A DNA stretch of 64,000 bases from Mytilus trossulus (taxonomy: Eukaryota). Every line of letters starts with the position of its first letter. The first letter of the stretch is position 1. Below are positions 1 to 8,100 of this stretch, piece by piece. A model generated the notes under the pieces. That model made no database searches. It was not told where the DNA came from and saw only the letters and a list, made by a program, of their open reading frames with translations. The stretch lies in the NCBI RefSeq assembly GCF_036588685.1, contig NC_086376.1, positions 7,254,001 through 7,318,000 of the forward strand, in the 5' to 3' direction. The translations under genes and the position numbers were made by a program.

Positions 1-1
1 G

Positions 2-328
2 AATGGAACGTGGGAGTGTGCCCTATTGGAAATGACGTTCGTGCCTGCTTTCGAAATACCCACGCGCAGGGTCTACCTATGTTCCGACATAGTGAGGGAA
101 GAATCGTACGTCAGAGACACGTATTTACCACTACTTCAATCCGTAGCAGTGCGACGGGACGAGACGATGGAAGTCGTCTTCGAGAGACCACTCTACCGCA
201 CGACGAGAGGAGGCGAGGTGACACTATTGGAAATCACCGTCAGAGACGATAGATTACGAGTGTGCCGATTCAAGGACGATCACGTATTCTGCTTGCTGCA
301 TTTTAGAAAAAGAGTTATAAGAGGATAG
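2..328 (+). CDS. Polinton minor capsid protein (penton, PX-like), 5'-partial
   Basis: Frame 2 is open from base 2: NGTWECALLEMTFVP...VYLCSDIVREESYVRDTYLPLLQSV...FERPLY...LEITVRD...CLLHFRK. This matches the recalled G-W-x-x-L-x-E, Y-x-x-x-D-I-V...P-L-L, F-x-x-P-x-Y and C-terminal LHFR motifs of Polinton minor capsid proteins. Confidence 0.78.
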   Translation, partial: NGTWECALLEMTFVPAFEIPTRRVYLCSDIVREESYVRDTYLPLLQSVAVRRDETMEVVFERPLYRTTRGGEVTLLEITVRDDRLRVCRFKDDHVFCLLHFRKRVIRG

Positions 329-358: not shown

Positions 359-508
359 ATGGAATGTCCTACCTGCCATAGACGGTTTTCCAGGAGAGAT
401 GTCATGTTGAGACATTATCGCAATCAGCATGGTAATGGGGATACGCCGCCGCCGCCCGTGCCTGCGGTGGTAAACAACCGCCGCCGCCGCCCGTGCCTGC
501 GGTGGTAG
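359..508 (+). CDS. C2H2 zinc-finger/Pro-rich N-terminus, frameshifted from the downstream ATPase ORF
   Basis: ATG at 359 gives MECPTCHRRFSRRDVMLRHYRNQHGNGDTPPPPVPAVV (C-x2-C-x12-H-x4-H), stop TAG at 506-508. The first copy of a ~35-bp direct repeat reads GTAAACAACCG and the second GTAGAACAACCG, so one missing G separates it from the 493..1776 frame. Not in the supplied ORF track. Confidence 0.75.
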   Translation: MECPTCHRRFSRRDVMLRHYRNQHGNGDTPPPPVPAVVNNRRRRPCLRW

Positions 509-1776
509 AACAACCGCCGTCCGGTCCGTTCCTGTTTCGACACCCGTTTACTATGATCGTTTCGGGTCCGACGTCTTGCGGCAAGACGCATTTCGTGGCG
601 AAAGTCCTCCGAGAAGCGGAAGCGATGTGCGAACCGGCACCGCAGAGAATCGTCTGGCTGTACAAGAGGTGGCAACCCCTCTACGACGTCGTACGAGACG
701 GCGTGCACCCGCCGGTGGAGTTTGTGAGAGGCATCCCCGCCGACCTGGAGAGCGACGACTTCTTCGATCCGAGAGTGCGCAACATGGTGGTCCTGGACGA
801 TCTGATGACCCTCGCCAGCAAAGACACCCGCATCAACGATCTCTTCACCGAAGGAAGTCACCATCGAAATCTTTCCGTGATCGCCATCTACCAGAACCTG
901 TATTTTGGAAAGGACCCCACCCAGAGAAGAAACTGTCATTACATGGTCCTCTTTGACAATCCGATCGATCGACAGCCCGTGGCCACCCTGGCACGACAGA
1001 TGTACCCGGGTCGATCCGAACATTTCCTGCGACAATTCGACGAGGCCACGAGAAGACGACACGGTTATCTCCTTGTCGACGTCAAACCGGAGACCCCCGA
1101 GACGGAGAGACTGCGCACGAACGTCCTGACGGGGGCGGGAGAGGAGGAGGAGACGACCCAAACGGAAGAAGTGACCACGAACGATCTGATCGCCTGCGAA
1201 GAATGCGGACTGGTCTTTGTACACCGCCGCGGACTGGAGGAGCATGCGTGTAGCAGGGAGGAGGAGGAAAGGATCTCCAAGGCGAGGAGGCTCGACAGCA
1301 GCGAGGATACCTCCGAATACGACACGGACGAAGACATACTTCCCATGAGCGACGCAGAACTAGAAGAAGCGTTGGAAGGGTTACCGGTGGACGTACGTTG
1401 TGCCGAAGAGTTACCCGCAGACATCTCGCACCGACCGATGACCTATGTCGTCAGCACGGATACCTGCGATGGACCGGGGAAGCATTGGGTGGCGTTTCAC
1501 TTTCCATCCACGGGACCGGCAGAATTCTTCGATTCACTCGGACGTTCTCCGGAGTATTACCATCGTCGCTTCAGGAACGTGCTCATCGCCAATGGACCTC
1601 AATACAGATTCAGTACGACTCAAGTGCAACCGGGATCATCCGATACGTGCAGACTCTATTGTGTACATTTCGTGAAGATGAGATATAGAAACATTAGCAT
1701 GGAAGACATTGTGAAAGATTTTTCCCCTAGTGACTTGATGAGTAACGACGACAAACTGCTTGCATTGTACGAATGA
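493..1776 (+). CDS. Fused Polinton DNA-packaging ATPase (A32/FtsK-HerA type) - zinc finger - adenain-like (C5) cysteine protease
   Basis: Walker A GPTSCGKT (565-588), Walker B MVVLDD (784-801), LFTEGSHHRNLSVI and GYLLVD motifs, then a CEECGLVFVHRRGLEEHAC finger. The protease starts at Met 1345, with GKHWVA (His 1483-1485), FFDSLG (Asp 1531-1533), QVQ and TC (Cys 1648-1650). Confidence 0.88.
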   Translation: MPAVVEQPPSGPFLFRHPFTMIVSGPTSCGKTHFVAKVLREAEAMCEPAPQRIVWLYKRWQPLYDVVRDGVHPPVEFVRGIPADLESDDFFDPRVRNMVVLDDLMTLASKDTRINDLFTEGSHHRNLSVIAIYQNLYFGKDPTQRRNCHYMVLFDNPIDRQPVATLARQMYPGRSEHFLRQFDEATRRRHGYLLVDVKPETPETERLRTNVLTGAGEEEETTQTEEVTTNDLIACEECGLVFVHRRGLEEHACSREEEERISKARRLDSSEDTSEYDTDEDILPMSDAELEEALEGLPVDVRCAEELPADISHRPMTYVVSTDTCDGPGKHWVAFHFPSTGPAEFFDSLGRSPEYYHRRFRNVLIANGPQYRFSTTQVQPGSSDTCRLYCVHFVKMRYRNISMEDIVKDFSPSDLMSNDDKLLALYE

Positions 1777-1780
1777 ATGT

Positions 1781-1786
1781 AATAAA
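1781..1786 (+). terminator. Polyadenylation signal of the ATPase-protease gene
   Basis: AATAAA begins 5 nt after the end of the TGA stop, where GC content drops. Confidence 0.55.
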
Positions 1787-1953
1787 TGTATATGAAACTG
1801 ACATCTGCGTTGGTATTTTTTTTTTCTATTTGCCCCGGACACGATACGATTAATCGGTGATTGACGTTCACACCTTGAAGAGTTGCCTCCCTTTTTGTAC
1901 CAGAGTTCTTCGATATGATCATGTGACCTTGCCTCGAACGTTGAATTGTCAAT

Positions 1954-4049
1954 GTGCACGAATCTGATCATGGGTACATCACTACATGTGACTAAAAATC
2001 TGTCAATTTCTATTTGTTCCATATGTTGTTACCTGGATAACTGTATATGGCAAAAAAGATTAGAAACCAAGGAATCTGATAATACCAAAGATGGGAGAAA
2101 TAATTCTTCCATGTTTTTTTATTTGAACATTTTTTCCAAAAAAATGTCTAAATTTCGAACCGGAAATGTTACATTCCACCACCTTAGATTTTTAGAAGGC
2201 TCTGTATTAAACATGTTTGTGAATAATGAACAGTGCTTTATAAAATGAATAAAACTGACACATGAATTGCCATTTCTTGCACTACAGTCATATTCTATCA
2301 TTTAGTTCAGTCAGAATATATCGTCAAAAAAACTAATCATGTTCATAACAGCGGTGTCCAATAAAACGTTGGAAGAAAATGTCAAAATTATCTTGAATGT
2401 TTACATTCTTAATTAGAGCTACAACTAAAAAAATCATTGTTAATCTAATATTATCGAGCAAGCAGTTGAATTAAGCACGTAGTCTAAAAAGAACAACTAT
2501 CATTGACCACATTGTCAAAAAGGTTTTCGAGGTGTCCAGTTGTTATGAACGTAAAAATACGTAATAAATCCGTTGTTAGCCATGCAATGTTCTCCCCCAA
2601 AATATGGAATGGAACATGCCAGTACACACAAGGTAATGACATAGTTATCAAATTGATGTAACTACACACAGAGATGTGACCACCTACACAACGTTGGTGT
2701 CCGTCCATAGAATGCGTAGTTATGAACGCAAGAAAAGAAAGAGTAGCTAGTTTTAATGAATTTTCAAGATTCTTGTGAACAGTATCAGTGTCAAATGAAC
2801 TTTTTATAAAAGTATAGTAACTATTAAATAAATGTAAAGTAATTAACAGTGTTATAGTCTTTGCAGTTTGGAAAAATTCAGTTTTTTATACCGACTTGGC
2901 GGAGAGGGTCATGGTTTCCATAGTTTTGAACAAGACATATTTTAAAATTTAAACTTGAAATGAAACTTGTTCAACATTGAAACCGAAAATACAACATCCT
3001 CTTTAAGTCTAAATAATATTTTAATGTCAAAATTGTAAATCTAGGATGTATAATAAACTTTAAATAGAGTAAAGTATGCCGTTCATAACAGTTCTCTAAC
3101 ACTAGCTTACAGTATTGGAGTTATGAACAAATGTTGTAAATCTGTTTTTTAATAAATAAAATGGATTACTGGTGCTTCTTTTAAACATATTCGAAAACAT
3201 TTGATGTCTGATTTTATTTTATCACGTTACACATTTATAACTTTTGGCATGAAGATTAAATTTTCGATATCAGCATTGTTAATAATTTGAAGACACATTA
3301 TTTTTGTGTCTGTTGTTATGAACGATTATTATTTGATTATTTTTATATGATTTTGAGTAATAAATGATAAATTAGTTGTTTTTCCAAGAAATCTTATGTT
3401 GTCTTTAAAAGAGGAGTTGTTGAAATTGCTAGCAATTTGCGACTTTCATTTGAATTTTGGGAAAATGTTTTTGTTCATAACCATGATAACGACGGAAGCA
3501 CAGTTTTGAAATATTGTTATGAACGTTTTAAAAATGTCTATAATCATGGTTTTATTAACAGAATGTAAGTTTTTGTTTAGTCCTTAAGCTATAATTTGGT
3601 ATTGTTTTATACAATAAATTAACCTATAAAGCGATTGAAATGTTTGTTTATTCACACAGGGAACATAATGATAGATTTGAGAACAATATTTCTGTTCATA
3701 ACGGTGTCCAAACATTTTATGTATTTTATTTATTACTGTTTCCCCAAAAAATTACAAAGTGGATAATAGTGTGTTAAGGTTGTTCTTGTAAACAGTATAC
3801 ACACCAATTATTGTACTAAAGTTGACCTGGTATCGGTATTTTGAACAAATAAGGACACTGGTTATGAACATAAAAAATATTTTTCACATTAAATAAAAGT
3901 AAGATACAGATTTTCTACAGCTCTATAAATTTGGAAACAATTACTTTGGATATTGGGCTAAATACATAGCCCATAATATTGGTGATTGAATGACTTTTAT
4001 TTTTCAGATACTCTGTAACATAATGTGACCCATGATCAGATTCGTGCAC
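1954..4049. mobile_element. Non-autonomous 2.1-kb TIR DNA transposon inserted into the Polinton (4-bp TSD)
   Basis: 22-bp perfect TIR GTGCACGAATCTGATCATGGGT at both ends. CAAT is duplicated at 1950-1953 and 4050-4053. Many internal GTTATGAAC/GTTCATAAC motifs; no ORF. Confidence 0.85.
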
Positions 4050-4501
4050 CAATCCAAGAGAGAGATATATATACAGAGTTGCTTCCCTTGTTTTGTACCA
4101 GTTTTGAAGTGTATTTGATGATAATCGATAAAATATATAAATGTTTTCTTTGCTGATTCATATATATGATTTCTGTATTTCGTCTACTTTTCATCGTGTG
4201 AGATATTTGATAATTTTATTTCAATTTCATTTTAGTTATTCAGATTAATTCATAATAATTAATTTTGACATCGTGTATATTTAAAAGGAACTTCGGACAT
4301 CTAAAATTTCAGCAAATACTACTGGACGTATTATTTCGAGGATTTATCTCAATTTATTTATTTGGTATGTATTTTACACAGTTTATCGATGATAAATAGT
4401 GAATAGAAATTACATGCTAATCAGTGATATTAATTAAGTCTAATTAATCTAGATGAAGTGCGTTTCTACATGTATCAATAAACGAACATCTGGATTTCGT
4501 G

Positions 4502-4675
4502 TCAGAGTGATGACCTCCATCTGTTTAAAGAGAGAGAAATTCCCTTTCTCGTTGGGATTAACTTTCCGTCTTTCAGCTCCCATTCTCGCACATCAATACT
4601 GATTTGGTCTTTCCATTCTTTGGCCTGTACAAATCTTTTATTATTTAACTCTATGTTACAACGTGCGTTCTCCAT
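4502..4675 (-). CDS. PC4/Sub1 (p15)-like ssDNA-binding protein, possibly C-terminally truncated
   Basis: MENARCNIELNNKRFVQAKEWKDQISIDVREWELKDGKLIPTRKGISLSLNRW matches the PC4 signature (R-F/Y-V...IDIRE...P-x-R/K-KGISL...W). It stops shortly after the Trp. Confidence 0.75.
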   Translation of the reverse strand: MENARCNIELNNKRFVQAKEWKDQISIDVREWELKDGKLIPTRKGISLSLNRWRSSL

Positions 4676-4689
4676 CTCGGCCAATTGAC

Positions 4690-4726
4690 GAATGATGAAG
4701 TGTTGAAGAAAAACTATCAATTTATA
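4690..4726 (-). promoter_or_regulatory. TATA box plus Inr-like motif upstream of the PC4-like ORF
   Basis: On the minus strand, TATAAA (4726-4721) is followed ~30 nt later by TCATTC (4695-4690), then ATG at 4675. Confidence 0.4.
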
Positions 4727-4923
4727 TTCTCATTTCATAGTGACCAACATTGACACGTTGTATCCAAATAAGTTCATCGGGTGAGGCTGAAAAGTTAGTG
4801 TTACCTCCTCGATCAACATTTGCCTGGTCATATAATCAAATTTGGATTCAGATCGACAATGACTTCGTCGTCGTCGTGTGGAAGTATAGGTTTTCACAGA
4901 TCGTTATGATCAAATAAGTTTAT

Positions 4924-5124
4924 GTGTAATCGAAACGAAAGGTCATGACTTCTGTTGATTGACAGGGAGGGAGGGGCATGACCATATTTATCCGTGCCAG
5001 CGTGCCTACCTTTTTTTCATAGACAGTGTAATCGAAACGAAAGGTTATGACTTCTGTTGATTGACAGGGAGGGAGGGGCATGACCATATTTGTCCCGTGC
5101 CGGCGTGCCTACCTTTTTTCATAG
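4924..5124. repeat. Two ~100-bp direct repeats in the Polinton subterminal region
   Basis: GTGTAATCGAAACGAAAGG...GGGAGGGAGGGGCATGACC...TTTTCATAG at 4924-5022 and 5026-5124 (period 102). Confidence 0.9.
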
Positions 5125-5151
5125 GCCTAAAACTGATCACTCCCTACTACT

Positions 5152-8100
5152 CACTGTGTATCATCGCCACCGGAAATTGGGTACTAACGAAGCGGAGAGA
5201 AGCAGAAAAAAAAAATAAACAAGTTAAGAATTCATTCAATTTAAAGCATTTCCACTCATTTGATGAGGGTGTCGCTTAAGAAATGATTTTCTGATATATA
5301 ATTCTTTTAATTATTAGGCCAATAAGTACAAAATAAATACAAGATTTTGTGTAATACGCTAAAACTTGCCACTTAGTACCGGAAAATTTCGAGGTCTATC
5401 GTCCTCTGTAGCCCCGTTCTCAATATATTGAACTGTTTTTCATTATTTTTCCAGACACGATTTTAGAATATTATAGTGTGGCATCATATTTAGTGAAATT
5501 TGTTGTCAAAAAGATGCATTTTAAAGAATATAGACCACAAAAAATAAATTCTAGGGTACGGCAACTTGCTCGTGTTTAAAAATTTACTGTATGGCAACTT
5601 GTTTTCAACTGTATGGCAACTTGCTAATTTTAGAATAGTTATTTACCGCGTCCTTTCAAAGAAAATAAAGTATTAAGTTCAAATATCTCAGATGGGGGAG
5701 GGGGGGGGGGGGTCTTTTCAAGGTTTAAATTTTTTAAAACTGTTATTTGACTGATAAATTTTAAAAACTTAACTGTTTTCGACCCACTGTCTGTAATCTG
5801 TTTTGTTAAAATTTGCAATGATGTTAACTGTTTATTTGAAATTGAGATTCTTGTTATCTGTTACTTTATACTTAAAGTGTTCACTGTTTTTGACATTATT
5901 TTCTCTGTTAACTGATCTTAACTGTTATTTACAAGAATGACATTAAAATTTGCTGTCCATCTCTTACTTAACGTTGCTTCCGCAAAGGAGTGACATTAAC
6001 AGCATAATTATATGTAACTGTACATGTCTTTAAAAAAATCTTCAGTGAGTATAGTAAATCCTTGATTAAATTGAGAATGGAAATGTCAAAGAAACAGAAG
6101 CTCGACCAAATAGAAGAAACAACCCAACGCAGCGAGAAAATTATGCACTAGGGTGGGTGTCAAGTCACAGATAGGAAAAAAACTAAGAATTGACACTCGT
6201 AATTTTTTAACACCCTCTTTCCTCTTTCCCTTCCCTTCTAATAAATAAGGCTTAATATTTAAGCTATGCATGTGTATATTTATGGAAAGAGAATCGTCCA
6301 TAGATTTGATTTCCAATAGTAATAATGGTGAAATATAATCTCTTTTTTTGTGAAACTATGGCAACAATGAGCAATTATTTGATACCAAATATTGCAAAAT
6401 AGGGGGTTGAACATGTCACAAAGATCTGAAAAATTTGGTCCAAAGGAAAATTTCAATCAATAAGAGTGATACCTTTCCTAATACCATAGACATATATCTA
6501 TCAAGAGGTTAAAAAAATCATATGCATTTCTGCTGTTTTTTTCCATGAAATTGAATTGAAAAGATCGAGCGTCGAATCTTGGTTGAAAAAAAATACAAAA
6601 TTTTTCAAAATGTATGGCGGTACGGATAGGAACGCTTGGACGGTCAAACTGAACAATGGCTTATAAAACATGCTTAAAATAATCTAAATGTTCATATTAA
6701 CCCACTAGGAAGGCTATATTATTATTCAACTATCTAAAAATCAATTCAATTGTACAAAAACGTTCATATTTAGAAAATTCACCATGGCTCGAAACTAAAC
6801 TTGTATGGTATACCTGAAGCTGTCTCCTAAGTGAGCAATCAATTAACTACAAAAGGGGGTCGAAGTTCAATGTTTGTTTCTTGAAACATATAAATGAACC
6901 CAAATTTAAAAAATTAAATAAATACAAGACTTCATAGCTAAGGTTACGGACTCAAGTTGGGTCATGCAGGTGCAACAAATGCGGCAGTGTTAAACATGTT
7001 TAAAGATATCTCATGCCCCTCTTTATACGTCTAACCAATGTAGTTATTTCTGGCTTCTATTTGAAATGTATCCAAAACGTTAAAGGGAAAGGCCACTTCT
7101 TATCCAGCTTAAACCCTGGTCAGTCCTATGACGAAAATAATTCACATGTATATGGAATGTTTGATAAGTTATATCGACCCAGAGTACCTGGATGGAATTG
7201 TGAAAAAATAAAGTACCTTTTCAATTTGCAATTCGTAAATTAACTGAACAGTGTTGGCCTGGTAGAAAAGGCCGAAAAAAAATAGGAATTGGTTCTCAAA
7301 TTGAAATCAAATTTGCTAGTCTAAGAAATTCAGAATGGATCTAAAGATAGACCAAGGCTTCTTTATATCAGCTCAGATGGAGATGAAAGAGTGCTTCAAC
7401 TTGTGACACCTTACATGTTACTTTCTGATTTTACACTGGTTTTGATGATTTAAAATTAAAATCAGTAAACCTTCGTAATTCATTTCAATAAAATCATGTA
7501 AGCAATGAGTCGTATGAATACCCTGACTGCAATGTAACTATAATTTATAAAAGCCCCCGCCATTAAAAAAATGTTCGCGCCCTATAGTATTCACTCATTC
7601 TATCTGTTTGTTACACTTTCCTACGCCATGACGATAACCCAAGTTTTCTTCGATTGATTGACACAAAACATTTACTCAACAATATACATAACCAGAAGAA
7701 GCCTCCCTTTTGGTGTTTGAAGCATTTTCGATTATTCATGACATTCTAGTCTTTTTTCTTAGAGTCAATCACTCCGTCTGCTTTTCCATCAGTTCAATTG
7801 TCTGTCCATGTGTCATTAAAGTTGCTGTTAACTCTTATCAGCATTTAAAATTTGTTGTTATCTGTGTTTGCCAAAATCGAGGTGTTGTTAACATGTTAAC
7901 AGACCCACTACCCCCCCCCCCCCCCCAACCCCCATCTAATTATGCATTAGATAAAATGCATTAGATAGAAACAGACAAAACAATTAATTCGAAATGCAAT
8001 TCACGATTTGTTTCTCCTTACTTTCGATGAAAACAAAGTATTTTCTTAATTCAAAGTTTATTTTTACAAATGAGTCATTTCAGAAATTAAATAACTAAAC

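Follow-up and report, generated by a model that had tools for sequence, protein, structure and literature searches.

Glycines behind a packaging ATPase fused to an adenain-like protease in Mytilus Polinton derivatives: a candidate processing site

Can a protease that is fused to a packaging ATPase release its partner by cutting the chain between them? The question is raised by a locus of the mussel Mytilus trossulus, analysed in a stretch of 64,000 nucleotides that is referred to here as the window. An ATPase and an adenain-like protease are encoded there in one frame. A preliminary description had taken five residues at the ATPase/linker boundary, LTGAG, for an adenain consensus cleavage site, and the product for a possible self-processing polyprotein.

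The element and its fused gene

The features concerned are as follows, in window coordinates:

1..328, plus strand: 3' part of a minor-capsid (penton)-like gene (tblastn E 3e-8 to the gene of a complete Polinton)
359..520, plus strand: start Met, N-terminal C2H2 finger and Pro-rich repeats of the fused gene (in one frame with the ATPase in other copies)
478..1953: right arm of a fold-back (inverted counterpart, 99.9% identical, immediately before the window)
532..1128, plus strand: A32/FtsK-HerA-type packaging ATPase, Walker A at 568-591, ending at Leu231 (weak Pfam Pox_A32 match, fold matches)
1126..1140, plus strand: LTGAG junction motif, predicted cut after Ala234 in the xxGx↓G register, the arrow marking the cut (translation and family comparison)
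1141..1344, plus strand: acidic, low-confidence linker with an internal C2H2-like finger at 1195-1248 (weak Pfam zf-C2H2 match at residues 254-271, pLDDT)
1345..1776, plus strand: adenain/vUlp1-like (clan CE) cysteine protease (profile alignment, fold matches)
1483-1485, 1531-1533, 1627-1629 and 1648-1650, plus strand: protease residues His, Asp, Gln and Cys, in that order (alignment)
4050..5151: rest of the right arm, with the terminus ending CTACTACT (tblastn, repeat comparison)
4514-4675, minus strand: 5' fragment of a PC4-like gene, within the right arm
5152..5157: 6-bp target-site duplication CACTGT (matched at the left end, G000:C4:7251251-7251256)

The window copy spans G000:C4:7251257-7259151, with its right end at window position 5151, and has a fold-back structure, its two arms of 1,476 bp being 99.9% identical; the inverted arm upstream of the window carries a second ATPase-protease frame. 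The host genome holds 22 matches to the ATPase at an identity of at least 95%, some of them as inverted pairs. The ends of the element are terminal inverted repeats starting AG, with AGTAGT ends, and 6-bp target duplications were found at five of the six other copies of this family (family A) that were examined, the sixth being ambiguous. Non-folded siblings of 4.8 and 6.1 kb have terminal repeats of ~180 bp and carry the PC4-like gene, a finger-penton-like gene and the fused gene. In the window and eight other 10-kb family-A loci, tblastn returned no match to PolB or the RVE integrase and no major capsid protein gene; the element is therefore a non-autonomous Polinton/Maverick derivative. It has the repeats, the 6-bp duplication and three genes of Polinton origin (ATPase, protease and minor capsid), and lacks the matches to PolB with integrase, and to major capsid, by which an autonomous Polinton is recognized.

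With Polintons, Mavericks and adintoviruses (Polintoviricetes) it shares an A32-like ATPase, an adenain-like (vUlp1) protease, a penton-like gene, terminal inverted repeats starting AGT and the 6-bp target duplication. In the complete Polintons of the host genome, however, ATPase and protease are separate genes, whereas in family A they are fused; the family-A element further differs in the two C2H2 fingers of the fusion, in its size of 3-6 kb, and in having no capsid, polymerase or integrase match. Pfam gave no match for the gene at 1..328, which we take to be a penton gene by its similarity to the gene at that position in complete Polintons; the PC4 label of 4514-4675 is presumptive. Likewise presumptive, and drawn from position and motifs, are the names penton, CARD, major capsid and core-type (PZ) wherever they are used.

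Other structures were observed at this locus and among its relatives. The right arm is split by a 2.1-kb AT-rich insertion (window 1954-4049) that has inverted ends of ~22 bp and a duplicated CAAT; it is likely a non-autonomous DNA transposon of unrelated origin. A direct duplication of ~100 bp (4924-5124; 95%) lies just within the right terminus and has a mirror counterpart at the left end. At least two families include numerous long fold-backs, with arms of 1.5-4 kb (L031-L035, L037, L038, L048, L050), suggesting that the template is switched in protein-primed replication or that an intermediate is palindromic. L101, L103 and L105, short elements whose terminal repeat is related, contain no more than a PC4-like fragment.

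Pfam matches to the 446-aa frame were all sub-threshold (Pox_A32, Peptidase_C5 and zf-C2H2), and the closest named proteins to the fused protein are from Mytilus. Its AlphaFold model has a mean pLDDT of 87 and two confident domains. The best PDB fold matches were the STIV B204 packaging NTPase for the ATPase half and human adenain for the protease half; among viral models, adintovirus adenain matched best (E 1e-10), and A32/IVa2 ATPases were also matched. The Pfam C5 score of the protease half lay below the Pfam cut-off. Its profile matched both ASFV pS273R (E 7e-5) and adenain (E 0.003); in each alignment the His, Asp, Gln and Cys residues coincide, which bears out the earlier assignment of Cys 1648-1650 as the catalytic cysteine. 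The protease half thus has the adenain fold and the catalytic order His, Asp/Glu, Gln, Cys; its glycine-directed activity is putative.

ATPase and protease form one open frame in many genomic copies. A one-off deletion in the window copy was rejected as the origin of the fusion, which recurs in other copies and in diverged lineages. Between lineages dN is 0.08-0.30 and dS runs from 1.4 to saturated, in both domains. The fusion is genuine and old, both domains are under purifying selection, and a known kind of element here shows a new architecture. The exception to the dS pattern is the C-terminal half of the protease, which is nearly identical between lineages A and B (L091:1645-2142 against window 1447-1951), the N-terminal half being saturated at synonymous sites; this near-identity suggests recent recombination inside the protease gene. 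The proteases of A, B and D form one group (support 93). A Met at 1345, where the protease starts, is retained in family A; lineages B and D have none there, so their protease is likely made as a fusion only.

The window copy itself is probably dead or inactive, its frame broken. Its N-terminal finger (359..520) lies in another frame than the ATPase, and its protease differs from its siblings at codons 1453-1455 and 1651-1653, the latter change being confined to both arms of the window element among 14 readings in L001-L022. Any processing would therefore be a property of the family and not of this copy.

Glycines at the junction

Translation of the stop-free frame 436-1776 confirmed that LTGAG stands at the ATPase/linker boundary: window positions 1126-1140 encode L231-T-G-A-G235, immediately after RLRTNV. 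In the AlphaFold model pLDDT is 93 at residues 221-230, then 61 and 43 across the following twenty residues, and below 50 at residues 239-249 and 288-294; given this drop, LTGAG opens a poorly ordered linker. Residues 231-235 are the single match to (M/I/L)xGxG or (M/I/L)xGG in the 446-aa frame. The caution already voiced, that a five-residue motif can arise by chance, was well placed: at least one match appeared in 26% of 20,000 shuffles of the whole frame, in 4.4% of as many shuffles for the inter-domain stretch 231-305, and in 2.3% for residues 231-252, between ATPase and finger. On these frequencies LTGAG alone is weak evidence and its position modest evidence. The leucine adds almost nothing, since it is the conserved last hydrophobic residue of the ATPase (L, F, M or I in 191/219 homologues); the information of LTGAG sits in its two glycines. 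Family A gave 24 matches, with LTGAG in 20, LxGAG in 2 and a broken motif in 2. These copies were rejected as evidence of conservation, being recent duplicates (dS 0.004-0.04 to the window).

The junction was compared across ATPase homologues by scoring GG or GxG within six residues (+1..+6) of the last Leu of the ATPase; of 252 proteins, 219 were anchored and 33 dropped. The fused clade (n=22) comprised 13 proteins with a protease match and 9 truncated proteins. The motif was present in 19/22 fused-clade proteins as compared with 4/176 other long ATPases; among 21 short ATPases the single carrier is a truncated member of the fused clade. Position +3 is G in 77% of the fused clade and in 3% of the other long ATPases. 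A Fisher test on these related sequences gave 9e-20, which overstates the case because all carriers share one origin. In a quick tree of 75 rows chosen from the 219 anchored proteins, the fused-clade ATPases formed a single group of 24 rows (SH-aLRT 88).

The adenain reading had been made to depend on conservation of LxGxG at this position among fused homologues. Taken literally it fails: LxGxG is confined to family A, LxGG occurs in one other lineage, and the strict adenain consensus is found at the junction in 4/22 fused-clade proteins (two lineages), 0/176 long and 0/21 short ATPases. Taken as xxGxG or xxGG, conservation holds, at the 19/22 against 4/176 given above. What stands of the proposed self-processing polyprotein is thus the old fusion, the adenain fold and a glycine motif at the junction; the adenain consensus as worded does not.

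The junction is spelled LTGAG in A, LGGGE in B, [QHN]xGxG in C1-C3 (the commonest form) and VLGTG in D, and these four spellings were kept while the adjacent linker is unalignable. In the codon view, family A is one residue shorter here than the C lineages. Counted by branch, the motif is present in 6/10, and three of the six are one subclade. The branches without it are P0006, P0102/P0216, P0034 and P0026; P0034 and P0026, neither of which is known to carry a protease, fall within the group of 176. P0006, placed loosely near the base of both the ATPase and the protease trees, is a fusion with intact His/Asp/Cys and no GG or GxG anywhere between ATPase and protease. P0102 has IEGGG farther along the linker, ahead of its protease. 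Of the four positives in the outgroup, three belong to one clade, which has QEGxG in the C register in 3 of its 4 rows and no protease in frame. The C lineages have a second QxGCG after the finger, which was disregarded because its Cys probably binds zinc. A search for longer proteins (789-2250 aa) gave two matches, P0251 and P0252, and relatives were found neither in scans of viral contigs nor in the phage collection. The junction is most likely a processing site of a broader glycine rule rather than of the adenain consensus as written.

Related motifs in other Polinton proteins and known proteases

The commonest junction form recurs in other proteins of the complete Polintons of the host genome and one metagenome contig (L071-L089, L043-L045, L099). 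QxGxG or QxGG is present in 7/9 core-type proteins upstream of the capsid gene, in 6/7 small proteins near the polymerase, and in 9/9 polymerase N-terminal stretches of 300 residues. Shuffled means were 0.3-0.4 per group, and 0/2000 shuffles reached any of these counts; the groups were picked after the motifs had been noticed, their members are homologous, and three of the polymerases are one family. In controls (capsid, penton, integrase, ATPase, protease and PW-type proteins) the motif was found in 2/41, capsid proteins alone showing no enrichment for QxG motifs (1/8). The M/I/L form was enriched in no Polinton protein group. QxGxG or QxGG is thus a candidate for the general substrate code of Polinton proteases.

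A hydrophobic P4 is also plausible in the lineage of the fused protease, since a core-type protein bearing IVGSG or IVGRG accompanies those stand-alone proteases (L061, L062, L121) which cluster with the fused enzymes (support 97, protease tree). Elsewhere the core-type motif is IFGGSG (L122) or, in the degraded L123, absent. Nor is the motif linked to a protease encoded in cis: it persists, as QxGG in the polymerase and as MVGEG after the ATPase, in polymerase-integrase elements that lack a protease match nearby.

Two further sets of elements were noted in this survey. Small derivatives encoding a finger-ATPase-finger-unknown helical domain protein and an integrase, with or without polymerase, had no capsid match (L035, L037, L038, L043-L049), and a search of the ESM Atlas with the C-terminal domain of non-fused ATPases gave no match. 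An element beginning with a family-A terminal repeat (94%; L061:1009-5481, at G000:C15:2531009) carries a CARD-like gene, an integrase fragment, penton, a core-type protein, major capsid and a stand-alone protease, and L115 combines the ends and CARD-like gene of L061 with family-A fragments. These two point to an exchange of modules or to a multipartite system.

In adenovirus, adenain-like enzymes usually act on proteins of the core type. The appeal to adenovirus-type glycine sites as precedent proved sound, as far as the accessible text of the sources goes: related proteases cut GX↓G and GG↓X. The sites of the Mavirus protease MVP are GG↓X and GY↓G, and a GK↓G site has been proposed in MV13 (PMC6048507); adenain, which requires DNA and pVIc, cleaves pTP at QRGF↓G (PMC4246237). 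Adenain resembles the protease half described here in fold, in the order His-acid-Gln-Cys and in its xGx↓G and xGG↓x site types, but is a stand-alone enzyme dependent on those two cofactors, with mainly M/I/L at P4 where Polinton motifs mostly have Q. MVP likewise has GG↓X and GX↓G sites, and likely also splits the non-capsid MV13 (PMC6048507, in the portion available); unlike the fused enzyme it stands alone, and it acts mainly on the major capsid protein, at the C-terminal tail. Adomavirus core proteins carry (MIL)xGxG or L(LR)GG, according to the available portion of 10.1101/341131.

Other fusions and polyproteins of these viruses offer partial parallels. The Hexain and Cahain adenain/papain-like fusions of Buck et al. 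(10.1101/2024.03.25.586562) join a maturation-type protease to a virion protein in related viruses, but the partner is hexon (potentially, by frameshift) or a Cah protein and not a packaging ATPase; a cleavage site is not mentioned in the accessible part of that text. The Polinton pPolB, a TP-vOTU-polymerase polyprotein, is also predicted to process itself through an internal cysteine protease, its vOTU domain being the proposed processing enzyme (PMC11071308, in part). There, however, an OTU-family protease is combined with a replication module, whereas here a clan CE protease is combined with a morphogenesis module. An ATPase-protease fusion goes unmentioned in the available portions of PMC3671162, PMC10294476, 10.64898/2026.06.19.733378 and 10.64898/2026.10.13.758929, and the words 'cleav' and 'fused' are absent from that of the adintovirus paper PMC8502044. 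Among the literature matches listed, which cover freely accessible papers, there was no report of such a fusion or of a Polinton QxGxG rule, and the literature searched reported no substrate of a Polinton protease. Polinton virions have so far gone unobserved, according to the part available of 10.64898/2026.06.19.733378.

Whether the junction is cut

The best reading of these comparisons, which we hold tentatively and at a little under an even chance, is that the fused protease releases the ATPase at the junction glycine motif. The element would make one ATPase-finger-protease chain, and the protease, acting in cis or between neighbouring molecules, would cut behind the ATPase and so free the packaging motor from the acidic finger-protease piece. 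The rule would be P4-x-G-x↓G or P4-x-G-G↓x, where P4 could be Q, H, N, L, I or V. Since the element is without a major capsid, polymerase or integrase gene, the freed parts would presumably serve the capsid of a helper Polinton. The junction enrichment counts for this reading, as do the four spellings kept beside an unalignable linker at dS of 1.4 to saturated, the motif counts of 7/9, 6/7 and 9/9 against 2/41 in other Polinton proteins, and the Mavirus and adenain cuts as described in the accessible text of PMC6048507 and PMC4246237. Against it count P0006, with its intact catalytic residues and no site, the survival of the motif in elements without a protease match, and the distribution by branch, only 6/10 carrying the motif and three of these in one subclade. 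In family A, moreover, the P4 residue is the conserved hydrophobic residue of the ATPase and may be buried.

P0006 would sit more easily with a flexible hinge, in which the glycines let the chain leave the ATPase ring and the uncut protein keeps its protease tethered to the packaging motor. A Pro-Gly-Glu turn is frequent at this place in stand-alone ATPases (one, FPGEG, lies in the LTGAG register), and in a clade of one origin inheritance can account for a shared motif. Yet 172/176 other long ATPases continue into a linker without the motif, and the Q/H/N at P4 in the C lineages, needless for a hinge, matches the motif of the core-type proteins; we consider a hinge rather unlikely. It is also conceivable that the junction of family A is a relic of an ancestral QxGxG, one codon having been lost, so that the last Leu of the ATPase falls at P4, the match of LTGAG to the consensus is accidental, and the site is no longer cut. 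The shorter junction of family A fits such a loss. But lineage B, whose protease groups with those of A and D, likewise has Leu at P4 in a different spelling (LGGG↓E), and in family A, which has recently spread to 20+ places, both glycines have persisted although dS is saturated, so that a relic appears improbable.

More improbable still, in our judgement, is a cut by the protease of another Polinton, either the maturation protease of a helper or the OTU-like protease inside the polymerase. Such a cut would explain why elements lacking a protease retain QxGG at the N-terminus of the polymerase and MVGEG after the ATPase, and why a non-fused ATPase clade has QEGxG in the same register (3/4 rows); the processing of pPolB by its vOTU domain has been proposed (PMC11071308, in part). 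The motif is nevertheless far commoner where the protease is fused, and the core-type proteins that share it belong to the class established for adenovirus as substrates of adenain-like enzymes.

The recurring QxGx↓G and QxGG↓x motifs of core-type proteins, polymerase N-termini and the junction itself provide concrete peptides for a single small enzyme domain. Packaging and maturation would be coupled in a new way if the packaging ATPase is indeed produced joined to the maturation protease and then cut free. The retention of the fusion under selection in elements without a capsid gene points to satellite-like behaviour among Polintons. In the widest version, which we regard as distinctly unlikely, mussel genomes would host satellite or multipartite Polintons in which small elements supply a self-cleaving ATPase-protease and penton, others, whose ends are identical or similar, supply capsid or polymerase and integrase, and the products of all are matured at one QxGx↓G-type code, the first substrate rule for the Polinton protease if this holds.
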